DNA of 61,738 nucleotides from a virus (taxonomy: Duplodnaviria > Caudoviricetes), in the IMG/VR virus record IMGVR_UViG_3300033144_001147, positions 1-61,738 of that record; one strand, 5' to 3'. Every line of letters starts with the position of its first letter. The first letter of the stretch is position 1. The notes under the pieces were generated by a model. The model had not been told where the DNA came from. It worked only from the letters and a program-made list of their open reading frames with translations, and made no database searches. Below are positions 115 to 61,738 of this stretch, one piece after another. The position numbers and the translations under genes were made by a program.

Positions 115-168
115 ATACCCTGTTTGAACAAAGTAATTATACCCGTCTTGAATTGCTTCCTCGTTCAT
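1..168 (-). CDS. N-terminal 56 codons of the giant virion protein (continues across the circular junction)
   Basis: ATG at 168-166, 2 nt after the stop of 171..2021; reads MNEEAIQDGYNYFVQTGYNGTIEDYQQLL... with no stop into 61624 and on to 52784. Confidence 0.88.
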   Translation of the reverse strand, partial: MNEEAIQDGYNYFVQTGYNGTIEDYQQLLQENNEAFNDTYKYFVNTGYNGTVEEFQ

Positions 169-4102: not shown

Positions 4103-5497
4103 TTATGGACATTTAGTTATTGATGTTACTACTCCTGGCATCCTGGTTCCTGTAGATTGGGTAGGTCCCGGGTAATTTTCTGGAGGTAATGCGTGCCCTA
4201 ATCCATCTACATCTGCATATTCTAACATTCCCACTTCTATTACCCAGTCTGATATTCCCCCTCCATCTTGAGCGTCAAACCTTACTTTATACATTCCTAC
4301 AGGTAATGGTGTTACCCCGTCTGGATCTTCGAAAACTAAATCGTGTAATCCTAAAACCCCATCTGGCTGACCGTATTGACCTGGTGTTGTTGGGTCGTAA
4401 CTTGCGGGAAATTGAGCTCCACCCACAAAGTATGATGAATTAGGATTGGTATTTCCAGAGTTATCTACCGGAACATGATAGAATGTAAATCCTAACGAAT
4501 GTGCACATATCGTACTAAATGCAGTTCCTAAAGGATATTGAAGACTTCTCTCTATCCCTGTCAATTGACGAGGACATTGAACATGAATACCCCACCAAGT
4601 GTTTATACAAGGTGCGGTTATAACCATAGTAGCAATACTATTAGTAACCCCTAAAGGAGACGGTATAACCGAAGTCCACCCTCTATACTCTCCGTTAGAT
4701 AAAGGCCATGGGGTTCCGGCTGGTGATGCTAAATTAGGAGCTAAAGGTTGAGCTCCATCCAAAGGAGACGCAGGTACGTTTAATGCACTTCCTGGGTTAC
4801 AATCGTTATTACTTGTGTTTGTACAATTCCAGTCTAAACAAGTAGATTCTAAAGACTCCACATTAGGATAAACCCCTGACGAACCACCTACATTATTAGT
4901 AATACCTGTATAAGGACCCATAGTTGCCGCTCCACTGGCAACAAAATTATTTAAACTTGCGTCCCAAATATAGTATTGAGCTCCATTTGGTTGAATACCT
5001 GAACTCCCCGTAGCTGTAGTAATAGGAGGGGTTCCTGGATTGTTATTAAAACAAGGAACAGAAAAGGTTGCTGGAGGCCCATCTGGAGCTCCTATTATAC
5101 CTCTTTGATATCCACCAACTAAAGCTGACCCTTCAGAGCTTGCCATTCCATTATAATTCCATGTAAGTCCATCTGGAATAGGTCTTAAAGTAGTGTTATT
5201 AACTCCCGAGCTAAAAGTTACTACCGCTGCTCCTGGGGCTGTTCCCATATCAAATGCAATAGTAAATAACCCTGTACTAAAACCTCCAATATTTATACCT
5301 GTACCACAAGGTATTACACATGAAGGACATGGTGTTGCAGGCCCTAACACTCCACCAACCATTTGACGGTATATACCTCCGATAGAATACCACCCATCAT
5401 TAGCTATGGTAGTTAAGTTTGGGTCGGTATAAATTGTAACAGCGGAAGCAAATGAAGCTCCCGCCCAATAATATGTATTTGTACTGCAAGTAGTCAT
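4103..5497 (-). CDS. Tail-associated/receptor-binding protein, 464 aa
   Basis: G/P/T/C-rich beta protein inside the tail module; its end resembles the C-terminal module of the 1721-aa protein. Confidence 0.55.
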   Translation of the reverse strand: MTTCSTNTYYWAGASFASAVTIYTDPNLTTIANDGWYSIGGIYRQMVGGVLGPATPCPSCVIPCGTGINIGGFSTGLFTIAFDMGTAPGAAVVTFSSGVNNTTLRPIPDGLTWNYNGMASSEGSALVGGYQRGIIGAPDGPPATFSVPCFNNNPGTPPITTATGSSGIQPNGAQYYIWDASLNNFVASGAATMGPYTGITNNVGGSSGVYPNVESLESTCLDWNCTNTSNNDCNPGSALNVPASPLDGAQPLAPNLASPAGTPWPLSNGEYRGWTSVIPSPLGVTNSIATMVITAPCINTWWGIHVQCPRQLTGIERSLQYPLGTAFSTICAHSLGFTFYHVPVDNSGNTNPNSSYFVGGAQFPASYDPTTPGQYGQPDGVLGLHDLVFEDPDGVTPLPVGMYKVRFDAQDGGGISDWVIEVGMLEYADVDGLGHALPPENYPGPTQSTGTRMPGVVTSITKCP

Positions 5498-16476: not shown

Positions 16477-17637
16477 TTATACTTTTTTTATACTTCTAAT
16501 TTTGAGTCCTTTTCCACTGCTTGAGTCGCCTACCGATCTAATCTTTAAACCATCTTTACTGAAACTTTGTGGAGTTTTACGCATATCCATATTAATGTTT
16601 TTTGACTTCTTAGTAACATCATCTACAGCTGCGGTCATTCCTTGATTGTAACAAAATTCAGCAAACTTGTCTAAATTCATCGCTACAGACATAGCTTTAT
16701 GATATCCTTGAGGGTCAGTCATTAGTCCGCTTTCTTTATCCATGAATTTACCCACGAAATTATTAACATCAGACTGTTTACTTTTTAACTCATCTCTATC
16801 ACCCGGCTTGAAGGTAAAATTTTTGTCTCCGATATTGAACTCAAAACCTTTGAACTCATCGTTAAAAACCTCGTTGGTTTTATTTACAAAATAATCGTAC
16901 CTTTTTTTCTGCGCTTCCTGTGCACTTTTCGATTCCTCTATATAACTTTTATAGCCTTCTATCTCTTTCTTCTCATCGGCTGACAATCCACCCCCGCTTG
17001 ACCCAAGAGGAGCTTTATATTTGTCTCGCTGTTCAGTTAGAAACTTTTTAGCTTTAACAAGTTCTCTTTTTTTAGCTAACTGCTTTTTCTTAATATCTTT
17101 TGGTTCGTCCAAATCTTCATCGTAAGAAAATTTATCCTCAATGATATCTTGAATATCCTCACTATCTAAACCTTCTTCAGTGGTTTTATAGTAAGCTGTT
17201 AGCACTTTGTCTCCGTCCATTTCTTCGTAGTCTTTTTGTAATTCTACAAAGTCATTGATACCTCGACCTGTTTCTTTTTTATATTTAAAATATGCCGCTA
17301 CATCTTCTGGTAAGTCTTCATTTGTTTCTTTCGCATCAAATAATTGATCTACCGATTCGATATCTTTATCATATCTTTTTTTAATATAAGAAAGAACTTC
17401 TGCATCATTTAACTCTGGTGCGGGAGTTTCTTCTTGTGCTTCTCCTTCCGATTGTACTTCTTTTTGTTCCGGAATGGTTTCGGCACTCGTAGAGCTTGTA
17501 TCCACTCGCTCCACGTTAGGGTTACTTTCTGTATCTTGGAATTTTTCTTCATGTTCCTTAAGTAATTTTTCTTCTACTTCTACTTTGGATTTTTCAGCTC
17601 CCGATACGTCTTTTACTGTAAATTTATTCTCTTCCAT
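16477..17637 (-). CDS. Capsid scaffolding protein, 386 aa
   Basis: Acidic and helical, between portal and capsid; -7 element TAACTTTG at 17658-17665. Confidence 0.75.
   Translation of the reverse strand: MEENKFTVKDVSGAEKSKVEVEEKLLKEHEEKFQDTESNPNVERVDTSSTSAETIPEQKEVQSEGEAQEETPAPELNDAEVLSYIKKRYDKDIESVDQLFDAKETNEDLPEDVAAYFKYKKETGRGINDFVELQKDYEEMDGDKVLTAYYKTTEEGLDSEDIQDIIEDKFSYDEDLDEPKDIKKKQLAKKRELVKAKKFLTEQRDKYKAPLGSSGGGLSADEKKEIEGYKSYIEESKSAQEAQKKRYDYFVNKTNEVFNDEFKGFEFNIGDKNFTFKPGDRDELKSKQSDVNNFVGKFMDKESGLMTDPQGYHKAMSVAMNLDKFAEFCYNQGMTAAVDDVTKKSKNINMDMRKTPQSFSKDGLKIRSVGDSSSGKGLKIRSIKKV
17409..17552 (-). CDS. Overprinted 47-aa basic peptide (ArfA-like) in the +1 frame of the scaffold gene
   Basis: MKKNSKIQKVTLTWSEWIQALRVPKPFRNKKKYNRKEKHKKKLPHQS; ATG preceded by TAAGGAAC. 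Confidence 0.6.
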   Translation of the reverse strand: MKKNSKIQKVTLTWSEWIQALRVPKPFRNKKKYNRKEKHKKKLPHQS

Positions 17638-23143: not shown

Positions 23144-23717
23144 TTTTTTTATATTTATAAAATATTACAAAAACATTTCTCCCCTCCTTCCATGATTGGT
23201 TTGGATATTTACTATGAAAGTAATTTGCAGGATAAGATATAAGCCTATTTTCCTCATATCCAGCTACCGAAACTAATCTCCATTTTTCTAATTCATTTGC
23301 ATCAACCCTTATCATTTCATTATATTCTTTATCCTCGACATGTTCAGGTAAAAACTGTCCGTAGATTATATGCTCCCAAAATGCTGTTCCGTGCAACTCT
23401 TCTTTCTCCCGAGGGGACATATATAAGACTGCCGCTCTATCTGGCTGCTCTCCTTTTATTTTTAAATCTGAATGTATCCTCCAATCCGTATCCTCACTAT
23501 CTGTAGATGTTCTAAAAAAACTTAATATATTTTCTACAGGCCTACCCTCTACCAATCCTAACTTATTTGTCATATAGTTAGTAAAAGTCTCGGGCGATGA
23601 TTGAGTATAAAAATCTTTTTCCCCTACTGTATGTTTTAAAAATTCTCCCTTTTTTAAATAATTAGTTGCTAAGTCAAATAAATCTTTATCCACGAAATTA
23701 TCTATAATTCGTATCAT
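23133..23717 (-). CDS. 2OG-Fe(II) oxygenase, 194 aa
   Basis: IHSD...AAVLYM...GTAFW...NRLISYPANYFHS...R gives the HxD..H facial triad and 2OG-binding Arg. Confidence 0.8.
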   Translation of the reverse strand: MIRIIDNFVDKDLFDLATNYLKKGEFLKHTVGEKDFYTQSSPETFTNYMTNKLGLVEGRPVENILSFFRTSTDSEDTDWRIHSDLKIKGEQPDRAAVLYMSPREKEELHGTAFWEHIIYGQFLPEHVEDKEYNEMIRVDANELEKWRLVSVAGYEENRLISYPANYFHSKYPNQSWKEGRNVFVIFYKYKKNEK

Positions 23718-24277
23718 ATTATCATTGTTATATTTTTAGTAAACATGCGGTATAGTTTTTCTCCTTCTACCTTAAACTCATATTCGCTGTCTGGAGCAAA
23801 AGAAATTTTATCTCCTTCTTTTACTCCTAATTTAATTAATTCATTATTGATATATTTTACTTCTCCCATTAAAGGCTCCTCATTACCTCCTTTATACATA
23901 AATGAATCTTGAAGTGTTAGAGGTTTTATAAAACAATATTTTCCGTGAGCCTTCCATTTATTATTATTTTTATATAAGAAAAACTGATCGTTTTCTACTA
24001 AGAAGTGGTCGTCTTTTAAATAACTTCTTCCGCTTTTTTGACGACCGTACATGTCATAGTAAAATTTAAAAACATTATGATGAACCAATAGAGTGTCTCC
24101 TTTTTGTATTTCGCCTTGATAACCAATAGGTGTAGAAATAACGGTAGCTAAACGATTAGCGGAAGTATGGTCTTCTTGAGATACGCTGGTTATAAAGTCT
24201 ACCTCCCCGATTTGAGTACTATTATCGTATCTTTTATTTTTTACAGGAGTGACTATAAAATTATATGGAGATCTCAT
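23714..24277 (-). CDS. GroES-like tandem-domain protein, 187 aa (start corrected to 24277)
   Basis: ATVISTP...IQKGDTLLVHH and GEVKY...GVKEGDKISF...EYEFKVEGEKLYRM; ATG coupled to the upstream stop (TAATG). Confidence 0.6.
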   Translation of the reverse strand: MRSPYNFIVTPVKNKRYDNSTQIGEVDFITSVSQEDHTSANRLATVISTPIGYQGEIQKGDTLLVHHNVFKFYYDMYGRQKSGRSYLKDDHFLVENDQFFLYKNNNKWKAHGKYCFIKPLTLQDSFMYKGGNEEPLMGEVKYINNELIKLGVKEGDKISFAPDSEYEFKVEGEKLYRMFTKNITMII

Positions 24278-24495
24278 TAAAAGTTTATATTGTATTCTAA
24301 GGATATAGGAAGGGTAACAAGGAACTCTTTCCACACATAAATTTCGTTATTTTTCTGTATCCAAATTTTATATGAACCTTCGAGCGCTTGTATTAAATGA
24401 ATGGTATGACTACCTCCTAATACGTCTTGCCCAACAATATAATGCATAGCGCCTGACTTGTAGTCAGCGCCAATTGATATTTTTCTAATGTCCAT
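24277..24495 (-). CDS. Hypothetical protein, 72 aa
   Basis: MDIRKISIGADYKSGAMHYIVGQ; operon-packed. Confidence 0.7.
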   Translation of the reverse strand: MDIRKISIGADYKSGAMHYIVGQDVLGGSHTIHLIQALEGSYKIWIQKNNEIYVWKEFLVTLPISLEYNINF

Positions 24496-33892: not shown

Positions 33893-34175
33893 ATCTTTTT
33901 ATTTTAAATTTTAATACATTACATTTCGGGTACAAATACTGAAGAATCTTAAGTCTATGATTTCCTTGAACCACCCAATACTTTCCTTCTTTCTTAGTAA
34001 CCTCTATTAATTCTTTTAATCCGTTATTATCTATATCGTGCAAAAGCCCAGTCCAATCATAACCTCTATCATTAGTTATTAACTGATGTATAGTGTAATT
34101 AGTAAAGTCTCCATTAATATCACAAAGTCTAATATACTCTGTAGTATACTGACTTTTATAATATTTTTTACTCAT
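33876..34175 (-). CDS. ParB/Srx-like N-terminal domain protein, 99 aa
   Basis: DIDNNGLKELIEV...YWVVQGNHRLKIL (GxxR box). Confidence 0.65.
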   Translation of the reverse strand: MSKKYYKSQYTTEYIRLCDINGDFTNYTIHQLITNDRGYDWTGLLHDIDNNGLKELIEVTKKEGKYWVVQGNHRLKILQYLYPKCNVLKFKIKRYETNR

Positions 34176-35790
34176 CCTTATTTATTCTCGCGTGAGTAAT
34201 TATAGCGTTAGTAGTTAATATGGTAGTAGCTACACTAATAGCGTTAGACAATGCTTGAGTGGTTACTCTTGCTGGATCAATAACCCCCATATCAAACATA
34301 TTTCCATACTCTCCTGTTACCACGTTATATCCTATATTCTTTTTTTGTTTAGTAGTAAGGCCTCCTTCTGGAAGATTAGGAATAAACCCTGGCTTATCAT
34401 ATATATCTTTTTTATCTAATCCTGCATTTTTTAGAATTTGACGTAAAGGAGCTTCTAAAGCTTCTTTTAATATTTTATGAGAAGTCTTTTTGCCATTATA
34501 AGTTTGAGCTATATTGTATAATAACAACCCTCCTCCTGGCACAATTCCTTCTTGAAGGGCACTGCGCACCGCGCATACCGAGTCATCGACTCGGTCAAAT
34601 TTTTCTTTTTGTTCTATGTCAGATGTAGCACCTACATGTATACATCCTATCCCTCCAACTAAAGAAGCTATTCTTTCATTAATAAAATCCTTCTCATGTT
34701 TAGCTGTTAATCTTTCTTGTTGGTCTCTTAATTCTTCTACTCTATCAATAGTCTCATTAGTAATCTCTCCGTCTTTAATAATGATAGTAGAGTCTTTACC
34801 TACTATAATCTTATCTGCATGCCCTAAGTCTTCCATTCTAATTAGAGATAAATCATCTCCTGTTTTTTCAGAAAAGTATTTAGCTCCTACAGAAAATGCT
34901 ATGTCTTGCATTAACTCGTGAGTTTTATATCCAAATGACGGAGGTTGTATATTACAAAACTTTAATCCATTTCTTTGAACATTGGCTGCCATTGTATTAA
35001 TAACATTCTGTCCGCAATCTCCAATAATTAAAAGCTTGTCTCCCGCATTAATAATAGGTTTTAATATATTCTCAATTTGTAATATGTTACTAATCTCTGA
35101 ATCACATATAAGAATCTTCACTCCTTCATATACACACTCGTCTTTTCTTTGGTCATTAATAAACATAGGAGAAGTCCATCCTCTATCTACTTTAATACCA
35201 TTAGTTACTTCAGCAAAAGTCTTATCTGTTTGAGATCGCTCTACAGTTACTATCCCATCTTTACCAACTTCTTTATATGCTTTAGCTATAATCTCACCAA
35301 TCTCTTTATCATTATTCGCAGAGATGGTTGCTATATCTTCTAACATATTCTCAGTAACCTCAACAGCCTCTGTCTTTATTTTATTATCTATTATCTCTCC
35401 TTGAACTCTGAGCTCTCTAATTATTTTAATTTTATTATCTCCTTCTTTTATATGTTTCTGACCAGCCTTCACTAAAGCTTCAGTTAATACAATAGCAGTA
35501 GTTGTTCCATCACCAGCGGTATTAGCTGTTTTTTCAGAAGCTTGTTTCATCATTCTAACCGCAAGGTTTTCGATTGGGTCAATAAGAGATATTGATTTAG
35601 CTACAGTTACTCCATCTTTAGTAACGGTTAATCCTTGAGTATGTTCTGTTGATTCTATCAATACAGTTTGCCCTTGAGGGCCAAGAGTTGATTTAACTGC
35701 ATTAGATATTTTAGAGATTCCCGAGGTAAGCTTTGTTCTTGCGTCTTCATTAAACGCTAAGTCTTTTGGAATGTATCCAGAGTCTTTCAT
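34168..35790 (-). CDS. groEL: Chaperonin GroEL, 540 aa
   Basis: TLGPQG, VTKDGVTVAKSI, AGDGTTTA, EGIVPGGG, GVIDPARVT. Confidence 0.97.
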   Translation of the reverse strand: MKDSGYIPKDLAFNEDARTKLTSGISKISNAVKSTLGPQGQTVLIESTEHTQGLTVTKDGVTVAKSISLIDPIENLAVRMMKQASEKTANTAGDGTTTAIVLTEALVKAGQKHIKEGDNKIKIIRELRVQGEIIDNKIKTEAVEVTENMLEDIATISANNDKEIGEIIAKAYKEVGKDGIVTVERSQTDKTFAEVTNGIKVDRGWTSPMFINDQRKDECVYEGVKILICDSEISNILQIENILKPIINAGDKLLIIGDCGQNVINTMAANVQRNGLKFCNIQPPSFGYKTHELMQDIAFSVGAKYFSEKTGDDLSLIRMEDLGHADKIIVGKDSTIIIKDGEITNETIDRVEELRDQQERLTAKHEKDFINERIASLVGGIGCIHVGATSDIEQKEKFDRVDDSVCAVRSALQEGIVPGGGLLLYNIAQTYNGKKTSHKILKEALEAPLRQILKNAGLDKKDIYDKPGFIPNLPEGGLTTKQKKNIGYNVVTGEYGNMFDMGVIDPARVTTQALSNAISVATTILTTNAIITHARINKDE

Positions 35791-52567: not shown

Positions 52568-52784
52568 CTCTAACTAATTCCGCACACTTCTCATACTCTT
52601 CCGTGTAAGTAAAGTATTCAATCAGGGTGTCATAAATATCACACTCCATAGCTACATGCTTCCGTTTAGGATTAAACATTAAATATAATATAGCTGTTTC
52701 TTGGATTAATTGATCTAATGTTTTTTTACCTAACAATAAATTGTAGGTATGTCGCATGCAGATATCTTCATTAAACCCATCCAT
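52545..52784 (-). CDS. Hypothetical protein, 79 aa
   Basis: LIEYFTYTEEYEKCAEL (UVR-like); coupled to the giant gene. Confidence 0.7.
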   Translation of the reverse strand: MDGFNEDICMRHTYNLLLGKKTLDQLIQETAILYLMFNPKRKHVAMECDIYDTLIEYFTYTEEYEKCAELVRAKKQASS

Positions 52785-55700
52785 TAGTCAAGCATAGGAT
52801 TATCTGAACTCATAGGGTTGCTATTCGACATAGGATTCTCGCTATGCATAGGATTTACCCTCTCCATTGGATTATCTGATTTAAGTTTAGTATTTTTTGA
52901 TTTCTTTTTAGTTGTTCCGTGACGCTCCCTGGTTCTTTTATTAACCCCCTTCATCATCTCTTTTCTTTGTTCAGCCCTTTCTTCTTCACTATTTATCTGG
53001 TACTCGCTATAATTAAAAAGCCTCATCATTATTTTAGCCGGATCGCTTTCTCCGTCCGCTAACGCTTCTAAATTTTTAAATATCTTATGAAGATTATTAA
53101 CAGGCAAACCGGTTATTTGAGATATCTCTCTTAGAGCTTTATAAAATTTCTCTTGTTTTTTTACAGGATCTTTAGCGTCTCTATATGCTGCCAGCTTGCT
53201 TAATATCTCTTCTCCTTGAGTTAATATGGGTAAGTTTTTAAATTCTAAAAACCCTTTAGGTTTATCTTGTAAGTAGTACGCAAATTTTTCTACAAACTCT
53301 CCATAAATAAACAAGGCATTTATATTTCCTAATATACCAGCTCTCATTAAATCACTCCCATCTTCTTCATCCCAATCAGCTAACAATCCTGGGAATCCAT
53401 TAGCTACATATTGGAAGAACATTGGCATCACAACATGATAAGTAATAAACGTTCTCATATTCTCCCCTACGGTTCCCTTCCCTTGTTTTCCTCCAGACGC
53501 AGCCAACCTGTAAAGGTTTCTTATAGCATACACTTCTTTCCTTAAATATTGTTTTGGAGTAGTTAAGAACATGTTAAGAGCTCTGTTAATTGCATCTTTA
53601 TTTTGGCGGTAATCTCTGTCTTGTAAATCAGTAGACTGCTGAGTTCTTTTAGTATCCCTCTCAAACTTTCTAATAGCTATCTCAATTGCTTGTTTTTCCG
53701 TTTTACCCGCTTTTAAAGCCTGCTCCTTGTAGAATACATAGTTAGGTACTCCCCCTAAATAGATAGCACCTATATCCCCTAAACGCGTGGTATACATTAA
53801 TATATTAATTAGTGACTCTCTGGTGTTGCCAGACATTCCAAACCTTTCTGGCATTACCTCTATCATTCTCTCATCCGTATAAGCCTCTATCGCTTTGGTA
53901 ATACTTTGTTTTTGTCGGTCTTGAAGGTATACAGAATTTTCAGCTATTTCTTTCCATACCGCCTTTACACTCTGTCCTTTTCCAAACCTACTTAATGCAG
54001 CGTTCTTCATCCAATTAACAAAACCTATATCATTTCCATAAGTAACAAAAGAAGTAAGCTGTTTAAGGGTTACTACTGGATTTATTCCTAATCGAGACAA
54101 GATAAATATATCCTGCATTACATTAACCGCTTGATCCATTTTACCGTCTGACTGCGACATACCTTTGTTGGCTATTTTATCTATAGCCGCATGAATCATA
54201 TCATTAGTTTCCTGACCATACAATCTTTTAATGGTGTCATAAATAATTGGGTTGGTAAAAATTTTATTTATATCACTTACCGGTCGAGCATAAGCGGCAA
54301 AATACTCCATATCTCTAATGTATGTAAACAAAGCATTAGTACCGTCCACATCTTTTCGGATAGCTCTCTTGTTATCTTGCCTCATTTTAGTAGAGTTAGA
54401 AGATACTGTATTGTGGTATTGAGGAGTTCCAGACAGTAGGTCTATTCCAGCATCTTGCTGGTCTCCCTTTCCTAACTCTCTATATACCATACCCGCATAA
54501 TTAACATTGTAAGGCATATCAATTCTATATATATCTTTATACGCTTGATTGTAGTGTTGATATAACATAGGGAACAAGATGTCTACTTGCCAGTCGGCAA
54601 ATTCTTTCAGCTCCGCATACTCATTAGTTAATAAGTCAGTCATCTCTTGCATAACTCTTTGATAATCACTTCCAAATTGTTTTTCAAATCCAGGGTGATT
54701 TCGAGGGTCTTTATATTGATTATATAAATAATACATCTGATTAGGAGATAACTCTTGTTCATTCTGAGCTATAGCGTCTTCCAATTTTTTCTGATTAACA
54801 GGAGTTGGATTATTGTTATAAGCATCTTGAGCTTTCTGCACAGCATCAGCGTCTTTGTATATTCCGGTTGATACGCTTCTTGTAAATTTAGCTACCTTCT
54901 TTTTATACTTTTTTCCAAACAACTCTTGCCATTTAAATATAATAAAAGCTTCGTTCATTAACATTCTCTCTTTAAACAAACGACTCGCTCTATCTATTTT
55001 TTCAGTAACTTCTTTCTGAGTAACCCCTTCAAATAAGGCGGCTGGAAGTTTAGAGATTTTATCCATTAAAGAGAACATGTCTGAGTTTTGACCCATTATA
55101 TTTCCTAAAGTTCTAACAATACTATTGACTAAATTTTGAGCTCTCTTTTTAAGAGCTACTCCTGTCGGTCTGTTTTTCTTGTTAGAAGCGTCATTTAAAT
55201 CTCCTTGTTTTTGCTTAATCCCCTCTATAATATCTGTAATTTTATCTTGAATTAATTCAGGGGTAGGGTTTTCAATACCATCTTCTTTTAGTTCTCTAAT
55301 AGCTTGCTTTTTAAAACTTTCAGTTCTACCCGTGATGTCTTTATACACCTCTTCAAATTGTCTACGATATTCTAAGTGAGCTTTTTTTAATTCTTCTTTA
55401 AACAATGTTTTCCCTGTAACTATTATATCTTTTAACATTGATTCTACCTTAGAGAGAGTGGCTACCTTACTGATATCTTTATTATCCATCAGGTTTTGAG
55501 CGTTAATTAAACTCATTATAATTTGGAGGTCAGCTAAGGCTTCGTAGTCCGCTTCTTTTTTAGCAGGATTTTCGTTGATATCATTATACTCTTTCTGAAG
55601 CTCCGCTAAATACTCTAACACTTTATCTTCGGTCTTCAATCCTCCTTTAGGATTAAGTCTCTTTCTTATTCTCTCTATTCTTTTACGCGTAGCATCATCT

Positions 55701-58700
55701 ATTTTAACTCCCTTCAGAATATTATTAATCTTTATTCTATCTTTAGGATTTAAAAGTTTTTCGATTGACTCTTCTAATCTAACATTATTCTTTTCAGCAG
55801 CAAATTCTAAAATTTCATCCTGTATATTTTGTATATTTTCAGGGGTTGCTTGTGAGATCTTACGAATTAAAGTGGTCACTTCTGATTTAGTATAAATATC
55901 TTTAGGAAGAACTCTTCTTAAAAAGTTTCTTAATTCTCTTTGAGCTTCCCTTAATTCTTTCATTCCTATCTTTTTGGAATTTAATATAAGTCGAGAATTT
56001 TTAATAGACGCTGATAAATCAGTGCTTTGTTTTCCTCCTAAAGCTCGCGCCATATCTATTTCTAAAACTCGTTGCTGAGTGGATGCAATATTAGTTCCTG
56101 TAGTGTTTAATTTTTTAAAGGCCGGTTGAGATCGTAAAAAATCCATAGTCTCGTCCATTATCTCTTGTTGACTCTTTTTTATTTTAGACTTTATATTAGC
56201 TCTTTGCAGTTGGTAATATTTTTTAAATACTGTATTATAAAGTTTAAGGCCACTGTTCATTCCCCCCTCTATATTACCTAAAGATTTAGGGATGGTTTTA
56301 AGAACCTCATCATGTACTTTTAATAATTTATCTATTTCTCTTTTAGGAAATTTACGGACTCGAGTTAAATAATCTCTGATTGCTGCATCTGTAAAATTCT
56401 GATCTCTTGCGGTATTAATAATATCTATAGGGCTATCTTCTTTATTAAAAGTTTTTTGGTTCTTTTCGGTTATTACCTTTTGGTTTTTCTCCTTACTTCT
56501 TGGATTAAACATTCTACCATTCTTTGTTAAGTAATATCCTGTCAACCTCCCATAGTCATACGCATTTTTATCTCTAACTCTCGCCTTACCAATACCAAAA
56601 CCTAACCTGCCCGCCCACGTTTCTAAGTCGGTTAAAGAATAAACGTTAGGACCAATAAAACCTTTAGGGTTCATTTGATACATTTGTATTAATTTATCTA
56701 AGCCGGCTTTTTGATTTTTCTCTTTAAGCTGAGTATATTTACCTGGATTATTTACTCTATCCATCATGTAGTCAATAAAGTCTTGCTCCGTAATCTCAAC
56801 TCCAGCTAACTCGCTTAACTCTTGAGCTTGACCGTCTAAAGGAGATGCGTTTCTTCTTAAAAGGAAATTTAAAGCCGCATTACCCTTTCTCCAATTAGGA
56901 TCTCCATATTTATCAAAATCTTGTTTGGTTATACCATGGAAATACTCATGAATTTTTTGAGCTATATAACTAATATCTAACCCAGCTAATCCTGATTCTT
57001 GTCGTTCTAAAGCCTGCTGTTCAGCATCTTGCTCTGCATAAGCCCCTGCAATCTCCTCTTCTGTATAGACATCTCGACTTATTTGATAATCTTTAAGGGC
57101 CTTTAGTAATGGGTCGGTAATAACATCTATGTTCGTAGTAGACGCATAAGTCTTAAAAGGTAGTTTGGATAATTTTTCTAAAGCTTCCTCGTAAGTTTCA
57201 CTCTCCTTCATTAGTTTAGTTATAAGCTTATCTAAAACTCTTCCTTCTTTAGTTTTCCTCAAGTCAGTGTGTTCTCGCGCATCCGTATACATACCTGCGT
57301 TGTTCGTTGGAGGATATCCCGCTAATTTTAGAAGAGCATTAAATAACATTGAATGATGACCTGGTACGATTGGAGTCTTTTTCTTTTGTGGAGCAGACTT
57401 TTCTTTCGGTGATTCTTTTTTAGATTTTTTCTTTGGTTTTGCTTTTGGTTTTCTGGTTATAACCTCCACATCAGACTCTTCTACCTCTTCTCCTGTTCTC
57501 ACCTTACCAGCTACCGTATTAAAAAAGTCTATAATATCATTGTCTGTTTTAGTAAATTTAACTATATCTGTAGGTAATCCTAATTTAGAAGCCACAATTT
57601 GTAGCCATCTTTTTACCGTTCCTTTAGCTGACTTATCTAACTTAGTATAGTTATTAGCTAACATAGCAAATAACTCGGCCACCTGTTCTTCACTTTGGTC
57701 TTGAGTTTCATAAGCCTTAGCAAACTCTTGTAATTCTTTTTTTACTTTAGGGTCTTTCACTCCCTTAATAGCGGCAGCCAACATACGCTGAGTAACCTCT
57801 TGTATCTCACTATCAATACCTAAAGTTTTTAATAGTACCGCATGCATAACTTCATGAGGAACCGTTCTACTGGTAGCGATGGTAGAGTTAATATGAATTG
57901 TATTAGTAGCTGGAGCAAACGTTCCTCTTGTCCCTCTACTCTTTTGACTTACCGCTTGATTATACGCATCCTCTGTAGCGTGTAATACTATATTAACATT
58001 AGGTAATAGTTTCTTAACTGCTTTCCCAGCCTTAATAGCTTGATTTAATAAACGTTGAGGGATAGTGGTTTTACCCTTACCATCAGTTGAGGTATATTGA
58101 ACGTTGTCTGAAACCCTGCCTCCTGGAAGAGAAACTGTAGACCCTTCACTGGTTGTTACATTAACCGTATTAGTTTCAGTATTTACATCTACCCCTGTAG
58201 TAGTGGTAGTAGTTTCCGCAACAGGAGTGTCTTCTGTAGTTTCTTCTGTAGTCTGCTCTACCACTGGAACGCCCGTGTCTTCAGCCACAGCTGCTTCTAA
58301 ATCACTAACCTCCTCATCTAATTGGGTTTCAGGTTCTACTTTCGTCTTCTTCTTCGACTTAGTATCTGTTTTACTTTCGACTTTACTTTTTGAGGTAGAC
58401 GTACCCGAGGTGTTTCCCGTTCCCACCGGGCCGCCATCTTGGGCTTGTACTTGTACATCCACTTTCGTTGAGCTTGACTTTTGAATGGCATCTGTTTTTT
58501 CTTTTTTAATTAATTCTTTAGTATTATCAAATTCTTCTTGAGTCCAGACATAATCCTTTCCCTTATCCTTTTTTATTCTATCCCTAACCTCTTGGTCTTG
58601 AATATCCATCTGCTCTATCTGCTCTCTACCTTTTTTTAATAGTTCAGCTTGTTTAGCATCGATCTGCTCTTGAGTAGGATTTTCTATTCCGTCTTTTTGT

Positions 58701-61700
58701 AGTTCTTTTTTAGCGTGATCTTCAGTAACCTCTACTGTATAAGTTGATGTTGTATTTCCGTCTACAGTAGTAAAGGTATGAGTTCCTTTAGCCAGCTCGG
58801 CTTTCTTTTTATTAACCTCTTCAGGGGTAGGGTTTTCTACACCGCTATTTATAAGCTCGTGCATTGCTCGTTCGGTTAAATGCTTATCTTTTGCTTCTTC
58901 GGAGAGATTACTTTCCCCTTCTCTTATTATACTCTCTACGTCATTTTCTAACTGAGCTAATTCAGCTTGCTGTTTCTTAGTAAGTTGTTTATTATATTTT
59001 TCAATATAATCTCTTAACTCTTGTTGTCGTAATAGATTCCCTAATAACTTCTTTTTTTGCTGTAATGGAAGGTCGGCAGGTATCTGATCCATAACCCCGC
59101 TTATCTGGTCGTAACTCTGAATCTGCTTGTCTCCTTCAGATTTAGTCATCTCACCTGATAATATTTTTTCTTTTATCTTTGTTACAAATGCGTCTTTGAC
59201 TGTTTGTTGCTTATGGACTTGCTCAAACACTTTAAACGTGTCGTCAGTTACTTGCGTGAAATCTTGATCTTTAGCTGCGTACACCATAGCCATTGGAGTT
59301 CCTATTACAAAACCTCCTATCATTTCTGAAGTAGCCCCTACCATTAGTTGATTAAAAAACTCCTCGGTACTTTGAGGGGTAGCAAAAGCATCAGCATCTT
59401 TTACTTCATTGTAAACACTTTTAAAAGTTATATCTGCTAATTCTTGAGCAAACCCAGTTTCAAACTCAGCAACCCCCGCGTTTCCTACTCTTATCAATCC
59501 TTGAGCTAACATACTGTTTACCTCAGCTTTCACTACCTCTTTGAAGGTTCTGCCTGAAACCTCTTTAGCTCCCTTCCCTAATACATTCATTAAAATTTTA
59601 GAAGATAGACTGTTCATTTGTTTCATGTTTCTGAAACCTAAATTCTCCAACACCCCTACTACAGCCGCTAAAGGAATAGAAAATAGTTTCTTTTCTCCTT
59701 CAGATATACTGTCAAAATATTCATCACCCGCCATTTCTTTTTGTAGGTGGGTATATACTTGTCCCCCCATATTTAGAAGTCTAATTTTTCCTGGGCCAAG
59801 CATTGCTGGAATACTTCTTGCAGCACCGTAAAACCCTAAATTACCTACCCAGTCCCACCATCCTTTATCCTCTCCTTTGTGGTCTATCTCGGAAAACGGA
59901 TGGTCTTCTACATATATATTTTCACGAGACATTTTTTGATTAATATACTCTCTACTATCATAACCAAAAGCCCAATCAAAACCAGCCTCAACACCGGTTG
60001 TCATTCCTTTTTCTTGCTGCACCCGGTCAGTTACTTTGTTAGCGAAATTAGAGAACGGAGATTTCTCTTGTCTTTCCCAATCTTCTCCTTGACCTAATTT
60101 TATTTGCTTTTTAAGATTATCAGCGTCTTCCCGCGACATGTCATCGTCAAACATTTTATTTATTTCTACTCCAGCATCTATTACCATATCCATTCCAAAA
60201 GCCCCTATATCAGAAAACCCTCCTGCTGTCATATTTTGAAAAAATCCTCCTGAAGCACTTCCTTGTTGCCCTCTCATCATATACCACAGACCTACATCGC
60301 GGTCTAATTGTTGACCTATATCTATTAAGTTATTTCTCTCTACCTTAAGTTGCTTGTGTAGATACTTTAATTCTATAAGTAAAGCGTCCGGAGTGGTAGC
60401 TACTTCCTCTCCATCCTCCCCGGTTATATATATAGGTTGGTCTCGAGGCAGGTGTTTTATATTATTATAATCTTGAACTTGACGGAAGTATTCTTTAATA
60501 TCATCTCTTAACTTATTTTCTTTTTCGGTTACTTTTTTAACCGTTCTATCCACCTGTCCTTGGTCGTGAAACTTAAACTCTTTTTCTACAGACTCTCCTT
60601 TCTCAGCTTCGTTATAATAATTAGTGTCATGTCTATTGTCTATTAAAAACTTTTTAAGGTTTTTTGCCTCTAACCCCTTGTCATATAGTCGGTCTAAATT
60701 AACATAATGTCGTTTTTTATACCATTGCCCATCATCACCTTCTTCATATCCGTACACATACATTCCGTCCCCCGCAACGTCAGTTCTCTCAAACACAAAA
60801 CCATAGTCCCCAAAATGATATTCCAGTAAAGGTATTACTCCCTCTTCCGTGTCTGCTACAAGGTCTTCATCAATATGTTGAAGAGATTGCTCGAAAGGAT
60901 CTTTACTTTTAATATACCCCGCTGTTTCATCGTCAATTCTTTTCCCTGAAGTTTCAGTTTCATGATAATACTTTCTTTTATAAGCCCTGTCTCCAGAAGA
61001 GTCTGTGCCCTTAAATATATTTTTAATGGTGTTCATTAAAGCTTTAGCCCCTCCCCAGCTTTCTGATCTTGCTACTATTTTTTGAGGCTCCATAATCTCG
61101 GTCTCAATAAGGTCTTCATTTACTGCGTCAAAACCTTGAGCAGAATAAAAGTCATCTATCTCCGCGTCACTCATTTTATTTAACTCCCCCATAGTCATGG
61201 TGGTTAAAAGGATGGCTTTCTGTTCATCGCCTCGTGCTTTATCTAAATACCACTTACGGGACTCATCATCCCAGCGCGCCCATCGGTCTAAAACTTCTTG
61301 GTCTATTTTTTGTTGAGTGGCAGGCTCCTCTTGAGATTGGTCTATAGCTTCTTCACTAACACTAACGTCCCCTTCGGCAGGCTGTTCATTCTGATCTATA
61401 TCTTGTTCGGATTGAGGCTGAGGGTCTCCTTCAGCGGGTTGTTCATTTTGGTCTATCGCTTGTTCCGTTGATATGTTTGAAGATTCCAATTTGCCAGGTA
61501 CTCCCTCCACTTGTGGTATACCTGATACCAACATTTCCTCCACATGGTCTCCAGTAAGCTCGAAATTTTTTTTTTCAGGAGATTCTCCTGTAGACTCTTC
61601 ACCTGCAGTAGTTCCTACTAAAACCTGAAACTCTTCTACCGTACCATTATATCCTGTATTAACAAAATATTTATAAGTATCATTAAAAGCCTCATTATTT

Positions 61701-61738
61701 TCTTGTAATAATTGCTGATAATCCTCTATAGTTCCGTT
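52784..61738 (-). CDS. Giant virion/ejection polyvalent protein with a zincin-like metallopeptidase domain; true length 3002 aa starting at 168
   Basis: Frame is open past the annotated GTG at 61543 through the junction; RGTFAPATNTIHIN...TVPHEVMHA...EEQVAE (HExxH plus downstream Glu). Confidence 0.8.
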   Translation of the reverse strand, partial: NGTIEDYQQLLQENNEAFNDTYKYFVNTGYNGTVEEFQVLVGTTAGEESTGESPEKKNFELTGDHVEEMLVSGIPQVEGVPGKLESSNISTEQAIDQNEQPAEGDPQPQSEQDIDQNEQPAEGDVSVSEEAIDQSQEEPATQQKIDQEVLDRWARWDDESRKWYLDKARGDEQKAILLTTMTMGELNKMSDAEIDDFYSAQGFDAVNEDLIETEIMEPQKIVARSESWGGAKALMNTIKNIFKGTDSSGDRAYKRKYYHETETSGKRIDDETAGYIKSKDPFEQSLQHIDEDLVADTEEGVIPLLEYHFGDYGFVFERTDVAGDGMYVYGYEEGDDGQWYKKRHYVNLDRLYDKGLEAKNLKKFLIDNRHDTNYYNEAEKGESVEKEFKFHDQGQVDRTVKKVTEKENKLRDDIKEYFRQVQDYNNIKHLPRDQPIYITGEDGEEVATTPDALLIELKYLHKQLKVERNNLIDIGQQLDRDVGLWYMMRGQQGSASGGFFQNMTAGGFSDIGAFGMDMVIDAGVEINKMFDDDMSREDADNLKKQIKLGQGEDWERQEKSPFSNFANKVTDRVQQEKGMTTGVEAGFDWAFGYDSREYINQKMSRENIYVEDHPFSEIDHKGEDKGWWDWVGNLGFYGAARSIPAMLGPGKIRLLNMGGQVYTHLQKEMAGDEYFDSISEGEKKLFSIPLAAVVGVLENLGFRNMKQMNSLSSKILMNVLGKGAKEVSGRTFKEVVKAEVNSMLAQGLIRVGNAGVAEFETGFAQELADITFKSVYNEVKDADAFATPQSTEEFFNQLMVGATSEMIGGFVIGTPMAMVYAAKDQDFTQVTDDTFKVFEQVHKQQTVKDAFVTKIKEKILSGEMTKSEGDKQIQSYDQISGVMDQIPADLPLQQKKKLLGNLLRQQELRDYIEKYNKQLTKKQQAELAQLENDVESIIREGESNLSEEAKDKHLTERAMHELINSGVENPTPEEVNKKKAELAKGTHTFTTVDGNTTSTYTVEVTEDHAKKELQKDGIENPTQEQIDAKQAELLKKGREQIEQMDIQDQEVRDRIKKDKGKDYVWTQEEFDNTKELIKKEKTDAIQKSSSTKVDVQVQAQDGGPVGTGNTSGTSTSKSKVESKTDTKSKKKTKVEPETQLDEEVSDLEAAVAEDTGVPVVEQTTEETTEDTPVAETTTTTTGVDVNTETNTVNVTTSEGSTVSLPGGRVSDNVQYTSTDGKGKTTIPQRLLNQAIKAGKAVKKLLPNVNIVLHATEDAYNQAVSQKSRGTRGTFAPATNTIHINSTIATSRTVPHEVMHAVLLKTLGIDSEIQEVTQRMLAAAIKGVKDPKVKKELQEFAKAYETQDQSEEQVAELFAMLANNYTKLDKSAKGTVKRWLQIVASKLGLPTDIVKFTKTDNDIIDFFNTVAGKVRTGEEVEESDVEVITRKPKAKPKKKSKKESPKEKSAPQKKKTPIVPGHHSMLFNALLKLAGYPPTNNAGMYTDAREHTDLRKTKEGRVLDKLITKLMKESETYEEALEKLSKLPFKTYASTTNIDVITDPLLKALKDYQISRDVYTEEEIAGAYAEQDAEQQALERQESGLAGLDISYIAQKIHEYFHGITKQDFDKYGDPNWRKGNAALNFLLRRNASPLDGQAQELSELAGVEITEQDFIDYMMDRVNNPGKYTQLKEKNQKAGLDKLIQMYQMNPKGFIGPNVYSLTDLETWAGRLGFGIGKARVRDKNAYDYGRLTGYYLTKNGRMFNPRSKEKNQKVITEKNQKTFNKEDSPIDIINTARDQNFTDAAIRDYLTRVRKFPKREIDKLLKVHDEVLKTIPKSLGNIEGGMNSGLKLYNTVFKKYYQLQRANIKSKIKKSQQEIMDETMDFLRSQPAFKKLNTTGTNIASTQQRVLEIDMARALGGKQSTDLSASIKNSRLILNSKKIGMKELREAQRELRNFLRRVLPKDIYTKSEVTTLIRKISQATPENIQNIQDEILEFAAEKNNVRLEESIEKLLNPKDRIKINNILKGVKIDDATRKRIERIRKRLNPKGGLKTEDKVLEYLAELQKEYNDINENPAKKEADYEALADLQIIMSLINAQNLMDNKDISKVATLSKVESMLKDIIVTGKTLFKEELKKAHLEYRRQFEEVYKDITGRTESFKKQAIRELKEDGIENPTPELIQDKITDIIEGIKQKQGDLNDASNKKNRPTGVALKKRAQNLVNSIVRTLGNIMGQNSDMFSLMDKISKLPAALFEGVTQKEVTEKIDRASRLFKERMLMNEAFIIFKWQELFGKKYKKKVAKFTRSVSTGIYKDADAVQKAQDAYNNNPTPVNQKKLEDAIAQNEQELSPNQMYYLYNQYKDPRNHPGFEKQFGSDYQRVMQEMTDLLTNEYAELKEFADWQVDILFPMLYQHYNQAYKDIYRIDMPYNVNYAGMVYRELGKGDQQDAGIDLLSGTPQYHNTVSSNSTKMRQDNKRAIRKDVDGTNALFTYIRDMEYFAAYARPVSDINKIFTNPIIYDTIKRLYGQETNDMIHAAIDKIANKGMSQSDGKMDQAVNVMQDIFILSRLGINPVVTLKQLTSFVTYGNDIGFVNWMKNAALSRFGKGQSVKAVWKEIAENSVYLQDRQKQSITKAIEAYTDERMIEVMPERFGMSGNTRESLINILMYTTRLGDIGAIYLGGVPNYVFYKEQALKAGKTEKQAIEIAIRKFERDTKRTQQSTDLQDRDYRQNKDAINRALNMFLTTPKQYLRKEVYAIRNLYRLAASGGKQGKGTVGENMRTFITYHVVMPMFFQYVANGFPGLLADWDEEDGSDLMRAGILGNINALFIYGEFVEKFAYYLQDKPKGFLEFKNLPILTQGEEILSKLAAYRDAKDPVKKQEKFYKALREISQITGLPVNNLHKIFKNLEALADGESDPAKIMMRLFNYSEYQINSEEERAEQRKEMMKGVNKRTRERHGTTKKKSKNTKLKSDNPMERVNPMHSENPMSNSNPMSSDNPMLD
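58336..58491 (-). CDS. Overprinted 51-aa basic peptide in the +1 frame of the giant gene
   Basis: MPFKSQAQRKWMYKYKPKMAARWERETPRVRLPQKVKSKVKQILSRRRRRK, preceded by the A-rich TAATTAAAAAAGAAAAAACAG. Confidence 0.65.
   Translation of the reverse strand: MPFKSQAQRKWMYKYKPKMAARWERETPRVRLPQKVKSKVKQILSRRRRRK
61625..61738. repeat. Terminal direct repeat, copy 2
   Basis: Identical to 1-114. Confidence 0.97.

Follow-up and report, generated by a model that had tools for sequence, protein, structure and literature searches.

The window analysed here, a 61,738-nt stretch of DNA from a marine tailed phage, carries on its minus strand a giant virion gene whose +1 frame contains a complete small open reading frame (ORF). 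This locus raises the question of whether the small ORF is a second gene, how its product would be made, and which of the two overlapping readings is the older.

We confirmed by translation the ORF that a preliminary description had singled out as a basic microprotein overprinted in the giant gene. The minus strand from 58491 to 58339 reads ATG CCA TTC AAA AGT CAA GCT CAA CGA AAG TGG ATG and onwards, which gives MPFKSQAQRKWMYKYKPKMAARWERETPRVRLPQKVKSKVKQILSRRRRRK (51 aa) with the TAG stop at 58336-58338; the host frame across the same bases reads DAIQKSSSTKVDVQVQAQDGGPVGTGN... The ORF begins at codon 1101 of the giant gene and is the longest ATG ORF in an alternative frame of the same strand within that gene. 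The stop-to-stop run at this place is 58 codons, the maximum, while the mean run in that frame is 9.5 codons. The raised local GC content that had been reported was also found (0.455 over the small ORF vs 0.364 for the giant gene, a level reached by 3.7% of 156-nt segments). The predicted product is a protein of 6.5 kDa with a pI of 12.0, with 20 lysines plus arginines and two acidic residues. In an AlphaFold2 model (mean pLDDT 81; 88-93 across the first 20 residues) the N-terminal module is predicted to form two short helices, residues 6-15 and 17-26. We also considered reading the TAG as glutamine and rejected it, as this merely appends a tail with three further TAGs and the genome has no tRNA genes. 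The features of the locus are collected in Table 1.

Table 1. Coordinates of the features discussed, all numbered along the window.
Feature	Position	Strand	Remarks
Embedded small gene	58336..58491	(-)	51 codons + TAG stop; +1 frame relative to the giant
Conserved N-terminal module, residues 1-34 (MPFKSQAQRKWMY..P..A..W...TP...LP)	58390..58491	(-)	from alignments
Variable K/R-rich tail, residues 35-51	58339..58389	(-)	predicted disordered
A-rich leader before the small-gene ATG	58492..58511	(-)	15 of 20 bases A; presumed Bacteroidota-type internal initiation region
Giant host gene	52784..61738	(-)	2984 codons in the window, running past its end; final gene of the virion module
Start of the giant gene (18 codons)	115..168	(-)	on the far side of the junction in the circularly permuted record
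Zincin-like metallopeptidase domain of the giant	57467..58045	(-)	HEVMH at 57842-57856; about 100 codons downstream of the overlap
ORF in the scaffold gene	17409..17552	(-)	47 aa

Small basic phage proteins starting with MPFKS form a large family that has no name, and judged by its sequence the small protein is one of them. A likeness to a stand-alone phage protein had previously been noted, and the homologue searches bore it out. A search of 5.8 billion sequences for proteins of near length returned nine proteins that stand alone, 39-49 aa long (identity 60-81%, E 4.8e-7 to 1e-4), and a profile built from 96 sequences matched 3784 representative clusters at E<=0.001, 510 of them at <=1e-10. 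Among the 150 representatives listed from the profile search, the match begins at residue 1-3 in 135. The motif M-P-F-K-S..Q, P17, A20, W23 and L32-P33 has a fixed spacing, and its positions are invariant or at least 90% conserved in alignments of 10 and of 96 sequences; the peptide of the window has all of them. The family reaches Streptomyces phages and a cyanophage. Weak tblastn matches in four unrelated GenBank phages each started from Met1 of a small ORF, two of the four unannotated, and tblastn with the stand-alone member P0010 against GenBank phages found one record. No match to GenBank phages was obtained by blastn with the region.

Pfam (down to E<=10), PHROGs and NCBIfam contained no family for the small protein. 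The nearest named cluster by language-model similarity (0.85, a lead only) was DUF3008 (PF11450), whose members are likewise short, basic and viral; membership was rejected as there was no Pfam match at E<=10, and we know of no function for DUF3008 either. The model of the small protein gave no fold match in the PDB at E<=0.001, and its fold matches in BFVD were uncharacterised family members alone. Literature searches on the motif string, on embedded or overlapping phage genes, on Elemovirus and on small-gene catalogues found no account of the gene or of its embedded arrangement, although large catalogues may list the family without its context.

The record ends in a terminal repeat of 114 nt. 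When the giant host gene is followed over the junction, its start is an ATG at wrapped coordinate 168, giving a protein of 3002 aa. Its relatives in cultured phages are annotated as "structural protein". Searches of Pfam, PHROGs and NCBIfam with the giant gave nothing beyond a sub-threshold GA-like match and no MuF domain, and phmmer against PDB sequences returned nothing useful. Since a single-protein search for relatives of the giant returned only six, an alignment was adopted as the query. In an alignment of 26 sequences the zincin-like domain has an invariant H..H..HExxH..EE pattern (H64-E65-x-x-H68, E119-E120), and its model has strands at 18-22, 41-44 and 49-53 followed by a helix at 61-75. 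The domain model had no fold match at E<=0.001, the top weak rows being mostly zincins, and the sub-threshold peptidase matches were to DUF5700 and Peptidase_M78 (7 of 26 members each; best E 0.0013). The giant's segment over the small ORF had been described as an acidic linker. We found instead that it is rich in S, T, K and G (K10, S9 and T8 among 53 residues) and that an acidic stretch begins directly after it.

We then compared the overlap in two sets of relatives. The peptide-retrieved set comprised the best 80 IMG/VR loci among at least 476 matching stretches; in 61 of these the small ORF lies wholly within an ORF of at least 700 aa, with a constant frame relation. The independent set comprised 80 loci among at least 277 matching stretches and was retrieved via the zincin-like domain of the giant alone. 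Frame conservation across homologous giants, a point raised in the preliminary description, was evident here: 52 of the 80 loci have the small ORF, and all 52 copies, very divergent variants included, lie inside the giant ORF in the +1 frame, start with ATG and are found 305-1790 nt upstream of the zincin domain. The two sets have some contigs in common, and because the HMM applied to the second was built on the first, very divergent copies may escape it. Pooling the window with both sets gave 114 copies (85 distinct DNA sequences, 75 distinct peptides), which range from 36 to 63 aa and start with ATG without exception. Start, frame and length are retained among peptides down to 35-45% identity. 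These results describe a well-supported and widely conserved gene-within-gene in tailed phages of marine Bacteroidota, with at least 85 distinct sequences.

The remaining 28 of the 80 zincin-bearing giants have no small gene within 4 kb. We searched five complete or near-complete genomes (CheckV 95-100%) whose giant is without the small gene, and it was found elsewhere in none of them; the same search succeeded on the window's own genome, used as a positive control. The small gene is thus either dispensable for this phage type or replaced by something unrecognised.

Gene callers were said to miss genes of this kind. Consistent with this, none of the 68 GenBank records of Flavobacterium Elemovirus gives the small ORF a feature, although all contain it beneath a gene annotated as "structural protein"; the same is true of one further GenBank record. 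In NC_055852.1, for example, the internal ATG stands at position 54224 of the record. Standard gene calling thus overlooks a conserved protein in every Elemovirus record, and the small gene is present in a cultured, tractable pair, Elemovirus on Flavobacterium sp. BAL314.

How would the small protein be translated? The A-rich leader noted in the preliminary description was confirmed. Of the 197 ATG trinucleotides on the coding strand of the giant, just 0.5% are preceded by as much A (75%); the mean before the 47 gene starts of the window is 0.55. Among 35 distinct contexts from relatives the leader has a mean A content of 0.636 vs a background of 0.384. In the small frame a stop precedes the ATG at a median distance of four codons, with no gap at all in 8 of 114 copies, and an in-phase slippery heptamer X_XXY_YYZ occurs in only 3 of 42 distinct ORFs. 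The leader, the stops at or near the ATG and the lack of slippery sites together argue for internal initiation, and we think that the small protein is probably translated independently in this way.

The same observations bear on programmed ribosomal frameshifting, by which no separate protein would be made. A +1 shift from the giant frame would join the N-terminal 1100 aa of the giant to a basic C-terminal module, and leaving the small frame by a -1 shift would yield a C-terminal protein of 1850 aa headed by the module, resembling the many proteins that have this module at their N terminus. An exit by the common -1 shift is conceivable because the small frame is +1 to the giant. The module does occur in-frame in larger proteins, mostly at the N terminus and including metallopeptidase-bearing ones, and the zincin domain of the giant lies just downstream. 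However, with stops so close to the ATG there is no room for a conserved shift site into the small frame. In-frame internal versions of the module tolerate N or V at the position of the Met, which indicates that the invariant Met of the embedded copies reflects start-codon function. The end of the ORF is conserved too, since most embedded copies finish with R/K-R-K and a stop within the narrow length range. Furthermore, two loci (L031 and L046) have a free-standing small gene beyond the stop of the giant. We therefore regard frameshifting as improbable.

We next considered which frame is under selection, using the 42 distinct ORFs of the independent set; the entropy and pair counts that follow ignore shared ancestry. 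Column entropy by codon position was 0.82/0.78/1.11 in the small frame and 1.09/0.78/0.82 for the same bases in the giant frame, while the zincin domain of the giant had the usual pattern (1.06/0.73/1.45). In the small frame entropy was higher at the third than at the second position (Wilcoxon p=1.7e-4). The synonymous share of single-base codon differences was 61% in the small frame (8120 of 13217 pairs) and 16% in the giant frame (1653 of 10431 pairs), kinship again ignored, and mean amino-acid identity was 0.565 in the small frame vs 0.429 in the giant frame. By this pattern of substitution, it is the embedded small frame that is under amino-acid selection and that is the more strongly constrained of the two. 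Taken together, the small ORF is very likely a real, selected coding frame.

The giant frame is also maintained over the small gene. It was uninterrupted in 114 of 114 copies, whereas when 96 peptides were recoded with synonymous codons at the phage's own codon usage the giant frame was free of stops in only 0.1% of 19200 trials. Stand-alone copies have stops in the frame equivalent to that of the giant. The overlap is thus a natural case of shared constraint, with amino-acid selection in one frame and avoidance of stops in the other. This bears on the idea that the giant ORF is really several genes, one for a protein upstream of the small gene, the small gene itself and one for a zincin protein downstream, with an untranslated linker. 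The overlap is of low complexity and poorly conserved in the giant frame, with its low synonymous share, and the giants are modular, the cassette lying anywhere from residue ~500 to 1100 and at a variable distance before the zincin domain, as this idea would have it. Against it stand the open giant frame, the two flanks, which are always in one frame, and the GenBank annotation of the cultured Elemovirus as a single structural protein of 3694 aa, and we consider it very improbable. Least credible of all is a decaying relic or chance open frame carried along by conservation of the host gene, which would fit the giants lacking the ORF and the absence of any RNA run among the sequencing runs containing the stretch (20 DNA runs from 13 studies), but here the host frame is the less conserved one, third-position variability and the synonymous share track the small frame, and start, frame, length and A-rich leader are all held in divergent copies.

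As a whole, we consider it likely that the small ORF is a genuine second gene of a widespread family, made from the mRNA of the giant, dual-coded and older than the overlap. Its protein, very basic, would consist of a two-helix N-terminal module starting with Met-Pro-Phe-Lys-Ser and a K/R-rich tail, and would most likely be translated from the late mRNA of the giant gene from its own ATG behind the A-rich leader. In the giant virion protein the same 156 bases would specify a low-complexity linker, and the small gene would be limited to codons that put no stop into the giant frame. The family is far wider than the giant (thousands of clusters), and constraint lies on the small frame. The linker of the giant therefore seems to have extended across a small gene that was already there, which makes the small gene probably the older of the two readings.

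The preliminary description had gone further and proposed a general strategy in which disordered linkers host such genes, with an ORF in the scaffold gene of the window as another example. A word-based search found no homologue of that ORF, and among 80 relatives of its host gene at least 12 have it at the same position. With such patchy conservation and no homologue it is not yet a second example. The general idea, supported only in part, gained from three other loci (L059, L071 and L072), where the small gene itself is found, again in the +1 frame, within the variable 5' part of a scaffold-like gene between the portal and capsid protein genes; its direction is probably reversed, the linker having come to the gene, and the scaffold ORF lends it no support. 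A more speculative reading, which we hold to be possible but rather unlikely, is that the small gene with its stop-free second frame is a portable dual-coding cassette that is dropped into, or overgrown by, disordered linkers of different virion genes. Most relatives would then have it in the gene of the giant ejection-type protein and these three loci in the scaffold-like gene, and it might serve both as a linker for the host protein and as a separate basic partner in the head. If this were true, the disordered linkers of large phage proteins would be a systematic hiding place for small genes, invisible to current annotation.

Overlaps of this kind have precedents. In the lambda spanins, the complete small gene Rz1 lies in the +1 frame inside Rz and is translated from a start of its own alongside Rz; phages related to lambda may have the pair separate or only partly overlapping. 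Like Rz1, the small gene is a whole, conserved ORF in the +1 frame of a phage gene on the same strand, and it has the same range of arrangements, being embedded, partly overlapping or directly downstream. Unlike Rz1, the small protein lacks a lipoprotein signal and a membrane segment, and its gene is not part of a lysis cassette in this phage. The host also differs from Rz in being a virion protein of 3000 aa, with the overlap in a disordered linker and the embedded frame more constrained. Overprinted genes such as phiX174 B in A and E in D, and accessory genes of RNA viruses, similarly have one stretch read in two frames with reduced synonymous variation in one of them. In such small viruses, however, the embedded gene is usually young, arisen de novo and taxonomically restricted, whereas here the embedded family is far wider than its host and the host linker is probably the younger reading.

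The neighbourhoods of the small gene give some indication of function. At L031 and L046 the gene comes directly after the stop codon of a 1600-aa protein homologous to the L068 giant, with a TAATG junction in L046, and at L067, L068 and L082 it is embedded. Other loci place it immediately downstream of the portal gene or between the portal and scaffold or capsid genes (L058, L059/L072, L076, L081). MuF genes usually sit just after the portal gene, and in often occupying this slot the stand-alone small genes resemble those of MuF/SPP1 gp7-type minor head proteins, from which the small protein differs in having no MuF domain; none was detected in the giant. Many neighbourhoods are outside head modules, some with glycosyltransferases, HNH endonucleases or lysis genes. 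A complex prediction for the small protein with the portal protein, run without controls, had a score of 0.00 (mark 0.32) and counts neither for nor against an interaction. From gene neighbourhood, fusion partners and composition we tentatively suggest that the small protein may be associated with the head or with DNA. It could be a nucleic-acid-binding or cargo-attached partner in the head, made together with the giant, the latter being presumably packaged and ejected. The giant virion protein, the portal-proximal head genes and the MuF fusions provide a first genomic context for thousands of uncharacterised small proteins.

The host gene resembles the polyvalent proteins of Iyer et al. 2017 (PMC5512222), in the passages of which the zincin-like domain is described as three strands, an HExxH helix and a helix with a Glu. 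The giant is likewise a very large multidomain protein containing an HExxH + Glu domain of the same topology. The Pfam models of polyvalent proteins gave no match to the giant, and the words "overlapping" and "frameshift" do not occur in those passages. The fusion partners of the module were counted from the 20 of 122 longer family members with a Pfam match. We found the module as an N-terminal fusion to DUF5661 (3), InPase (2), GH24 lysozyme (2) and EncFtn/rubrerythrin (2), and also to LigD phosphoesterase, NUDIX, SAM lyase and metallopeptidases; MuF, InPase, lysozyme, SAM lyase and LigD phosphoesterase are of the kind listed in those passages of PMC5512222. The most frequent partner was MuF (4), and in these four family members the module lies N-terminal to, or inside, the MuF-domain protein.

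An ORF hidden in the +1 frame of the giant gene had been claimed in the preliminary description, together with an A-rich initiation region and locally raised GC, and we found all three. The ORF opens with an ATG and its minus-strand translation is MPFKSQAQRKWMYKYKPKMAARWERETPRVRLPQKVKSKVKQILSRRRRRK, a protein with a computed pI of 12.0 that holds 20 K+R and 2 D+E. It lies entirely within ORF 52784..61738(-), starts at host codon 1101 and is the longest of the host's same-strand alternative-frame ATG ORFs; open runs in the host's +1 frame average 9.5 codons. Its GC content is 0.455 versus 0.364 for the host. The 20 bases 5' of the ATG are 75% A, a value matched by just 0.5% of 197 ATGs on the host coding strand, and the leaders at the window's 47 gene starts have a mean A content of 0.55.

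The host ORF runs past the window end. The window is itself a complete virus record whose two ends repeat 114 nt exactly (1-114 and 61625-61738), and the giant gene spans the record junction, with its ATG at wrapped coordinate 168 and 3002 codons in total. This ATG is 5 nt past the stop of the preceding gene (171-2021, minus strand). PHROGs matches in the genome include the large terminase, portal, holin, replication genes, GroEL- and GroES-like proteins and several 'virion structural proteins' of Cellulophaga-phage type. The virion genes are followed, on their strand, by the giant gene. Pfam, PHROGs and NCBIfam gave no family match for the giant or for the small protein.

Positions of the small gene, its relatives and other features (window coordinates unless a locus is named)
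Feature	Position	Strand	Remarks
Small ORF	58491 to 58339; TAG stop 58336-58338	minus	51 codons, ATG start
First part of giant gene beyond the junction	115-168	minus	read across the terminal repeat
Scaffold ORF	17409-17552	minus	47 aa, 34% K+R; +1 frame, variable 5' part of scaffold-like gene 16477-17637(-)
GroES-like gene	23714-24334	minus	206 aa
GroEL-like gene	34168-35790	minus	540 aa
Distant family members (actinophage, cyanophage)	L001 (FlowerPower) 2498-2719; L002 2498-2605; L003 2501-2611
Two-cysteine sub-family	L172 (NC_055852.1) 5228-5353		also in L114, L115, L119, L122, L124, L142, L153

The overlap was followed in two sets of relatives. When IMG/VR was scanned for the pattern of the peptide alignment, at least 476 of 600 candidate stretches proved to hold relatives, and 80 loci were kept. 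For 61 of the 80 loci, a same-strand ORF of between 700 and over 3000 codons encloses the small ORF entirely, always in the identical frame relation. Since this set was selected by the peptide, we built a second set that ignored it. Briefly, the zincin-like (metallopeptidase-like) domain of the giant was aligned (26 sequences), the alignment was scanned over IMG/VR, 80 of the 277 related loci (from 441 stretches) were kept, and their six frames were searched with a small-peptide HMM. The small ORF was present in 52 of the 80, at a distance of 305 to 1790 nt 5' of the zincin domain; without exception these 52 copies start with ATG, share the giant's strand and lie within its ORF in frame +1. 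The overlap is conserved in relatives. Divergent versions include MPVQSKAQWRKLAQSNPKLLKKW..., MSFKSERQKNWLKKNLPQIYHLW... and a two-cysteine form, MPFKSKKQRRKCYQMNSPKWDCKMW.... The same search found no copy within 4 kb in the other 28 loci, which have other domains upstream of the zincin domain. Pooled with the window, the sets hold 114 embedded copies (85 distinct DNA sequences, 75 distinct peptides) of 36 to 63 aa. All 114 start with ATG; they end in TAG (69), TAA (43) or TGA (1), and one is cut by the locus end.

Among cultured phages the giant has its nearest relatives in the genus Elemovirus (68 records of Flavobacterium phages, podoviruses that infect a Baltic Flavobacterium) and in Tenacibaculum phage Gundel_1; in both the gene is annotated 'structural protein'. 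In Elemovirus elemoA_7-9A the gene for a 3694-aa structural protein has the two-cysteine form in its +1 frame, at record position 54224. By tblastn it occurs in 68/68 Elemovirus records and one further GenBank record, in every case under the giant's annotation. None of the 68 Elemovirus records, elemoA_7-9A included, annotates the embedded gene itself, so gene callers do miss it as had been supposed. The conserved cysteines of this sub-family, in ..KCYQMNSPKWDCK.., suggest a disulfide or metal site. An embedded ORF is also seen in GenBank MW202828.1 (9638-9724, minus strand), in the giant of an uncultured Caudoviricetes from a freshwater spring; that giant's label, 'reticulocyte binding/rhoptry protein', is probably a low-complexity mis-annotation.

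Selection was measured on the 42 distinct ORFs of the independent, zincin-retrieved set. With shared ancestry uncorrected, entropy at codon positions 1/2/3 of the overlap was 0.82/0.78/1.11 in the small frame and 1.09/0.78/0.82 in the giant frame, and 1.06/0.73/1.45 in the giant frame of the zincin domain, the control. The usual third-position excess is lost in the giant frame over the overlap and regained in the zincin domain; in the small frame third-position entropy exceeds second-position entropy (Wilcoxon p=1.7e-4, ancestry likewise uncorrected). One-base codon-pair differences, in pairs uncorrected for kinship, were synonymous in 61% of cases when read in the small frame (8120 of 13217), as against 16% in the giant frame (1653 of 10431). 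Mean pairwise amino-acid identity over the overlap, likewise uncorrected, was 0.565 for the small frame versus 0.429 for the giant frame. The pattern was repeated in the peptide-ascertained set. On these measures amino-acid choice over the overlap bases is set by the small gene.

We then redrew the codons of 96 peptides randomly from this phage's codon usage (19200 trials). The giant frame was stop-free in just 0.1% of trials and the third frame in 13%; giant-frame stops are common because a T-ending codon before K, N, E, D or AGR/AGY makes one. Stand-alone copies contain such stops and 114/114 embedded copies have none, which, given how rarely resampling leaves that frame stop-free, implies that the small gene's codon choice is constrained by the giant's reading. 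Constraint is divided unusually between the two frames. These comparisons indicate that the small ORF is a real, conserved, unannotated gene within a gene.

Likeness of the peptide to stand-alone phage proteins, as previously put forward, was borne out by homologue searches. A word-based search returned nine stand-alone homologues (39-49 aa, E 4.8e-7 to 1e-4, identity 60-81%) with the consensus MPFKSQAQRKWMYxNKPKMAKKWExETPKGKKLPKKVKKKK. Matches by tblastn to GenBank phages were mostly due to chance (Klebsiella phages made up 42 of 58 records; their rows among the matches listed are capsid genes at E 2-4). Those beginning exactly at Met1 of small basic ORFs were in Streptomyces phage FlowerPower and kin, C75C1, Synechococcus phage S-CBS2 and phage 023Pt_psg01; the C75C1 and S-CBS2 copies are unannotated, in gaps between annotated genes. 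The FlowerPower copy lies between 'peptidase' and holin, and the stand-alone gene of 023Pt_psg01 two genes upstream of a GroES-like gene. A 96-member profile matched 3784 representative clusters at E<=0.001 (510 at <=1e-10) among 1.84 billion proteins, and the match begins at residue 1-3 in 135 of 150 representatives among the matches listed. Thus the small peptide belongs to a real family of small basic phage proteins. Members in UniProt and BFVD carry only the name 'uncharacterized protein', and a language-model search returned unnamed viral clusters only, with DUF3008 a weak lead (0.85).

A-rich leaders serve initiation in Bacteroidota. The leader of the relatives (mean A 0.636 in 35 distinct contexts, versus 0.384 in 20-mers of the same loci) is richer in A than the window's own gene starts. 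In other phages' proteins with an internal in-frame module, N or V takes the place of Met, so the invariant embedded ATG is best read as a start codon. Frameshifting, a rival route to a small-frame product, has an in-phase slippery heptamer to draw on in only 3 of 42 distinct ORFs; ahead of the ATG the small frame has a stop at a median distance of 4 codons (n=114), which touches the ATG in 8 copies, and frameshifting would not call for an ATG where N or V is tolerated. Nothing spoke for TAG recoding, and no tRNA gene was found in the genome. Taken together, these features favour internal initiation over frameshifting. The motif G-[IV]-E-N-P-T-P-E-[EQ]-[IV] is repeated in the giant (near residues 975, 1025 and 2140 as translated from the window), and in several lineages (contexts in loci L091-L170) its coding sequence, ..ACTCCTGAACAAATTAAA.., abuts the embedded ATG and so supplies part of the A-rich leader.

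The small gene is found on its own, abutting, in partial overlap (L073, L075) and fully embedded. Since the family is far wider than the giant and the small frame is the constrained one, the likeliest origin is that host reading frames extended over an older small gene, birth of the gene from a linker being less likely. Two different host genes hold it with their frames related in the same way, and the host-frame translations are alike (DDAVQESSTTKVDV in locus L059, DAIQKSSSTKVDV in the window); a two-frame cassette might move as a unit.

A general strategy had been proposed, in which acidic linkers host basic +1-frame genes, with the scaffold ORF as a second example. The embedded gene is real, but the host segment is S/T/K-rich in composition, not acidic, and the scaffold case is unproven: a similar ORF occupies its place in at least 12 of 80 relatives of its host gene, including two distant hosts (about 62% identical), but a word-based search found no homologue. 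In L059, L071 and L072 a true MPFKS-family ORF takes its place, in the +1 frame of a scaffold-like gene's variable 5' part; from residue 108 on, that gene is homologous to window 16477-17637. The small gene joins a known class of embedded phage genes, in an unusual host. No account of the gene or arrangement was found in literature searches on the motif, embedded or overlapping phage genes, Elemovirus, polyvalent proteins or small-phage-gene catalogues; large small-protein catalogues may list the family.

AlphaFold2 (96-sequence alignment) predicted two short helices (6-15 and 17-26, pLDDT about 90) and a disordered basic tail; fold searches of PDB and BFVD with this model gave no informative match. 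In L031 and L046 the small gene directly follows the stop of a gene for a 1600-aa protein (TAATG in L046) colinear with the L068 giant (37% identity); in L067, L068 and L082 it is embedded near residue 500. This arrangement is a lead to a possible link with the giant gene beyond the overlap. A second lead is a possible place in the head module of unrelated phages: L058 has the small gene after portal, L076 has it between portal and scaffold/capsid genes, L059, L071 and L072 have it within the scaffold-like gene, and in L081 the portal gene is followed by one for a 195-aa module-bearing protein. Other neighbourhoods are unrelated to heads. In five genomes whose giant lacks the gene (CheckV completeness 100% for four, 95% for one) no copy was found elsewhere, and the same search found exactly one in the window's genome; together with the 28 of 80 giants without it, this counts against an essential role. 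We propose tentatively, at less than even odds, that the small protein may be head-associated, nucleic-acid-binding or cargo-attached, and made together with the giant virion protein. By composition, the basic tail and TP..K.LP..V stretch would suit DNA binding.

A third lead is fusion of the family's module to the N-terminus of other proteins. A search of longer proteins found 211 that bear the module at E<=0.001, and for 103 of 129 domain rows it begins at residue 1-3. Among 122 members of >=140 aa, 20 had a Pfam match at E<=1e-5: MuF (4), DUF5661 (3), InPase (2), GH24 lysozyme (2), EncFtn/rubrerythrin (2), and LigD phosphoesterase, NUDIX, cupin, SAM lyase, putative metallopeptidase, GerE and PF0610-like (one each). 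Weak M48-like peptidase matches were seen in one member of 425 aa. Iyer et al. (PMC5512222) described large packaged 'polyvalent' proteins, for which several of these partners are characteristic. The giant's zincin-like domain, which had no significant match among curated models, fits the hub peptidase of that paper by motif and predicted topology. Family members P0064, P0236 and P0255, from public collections, join the N-terminal module to encapsulated-ferritin-like or rubrerythrin domains and to a SAM lyase domain, partners that recall shell-loaded cargo and injected anti-restriction enzymes.
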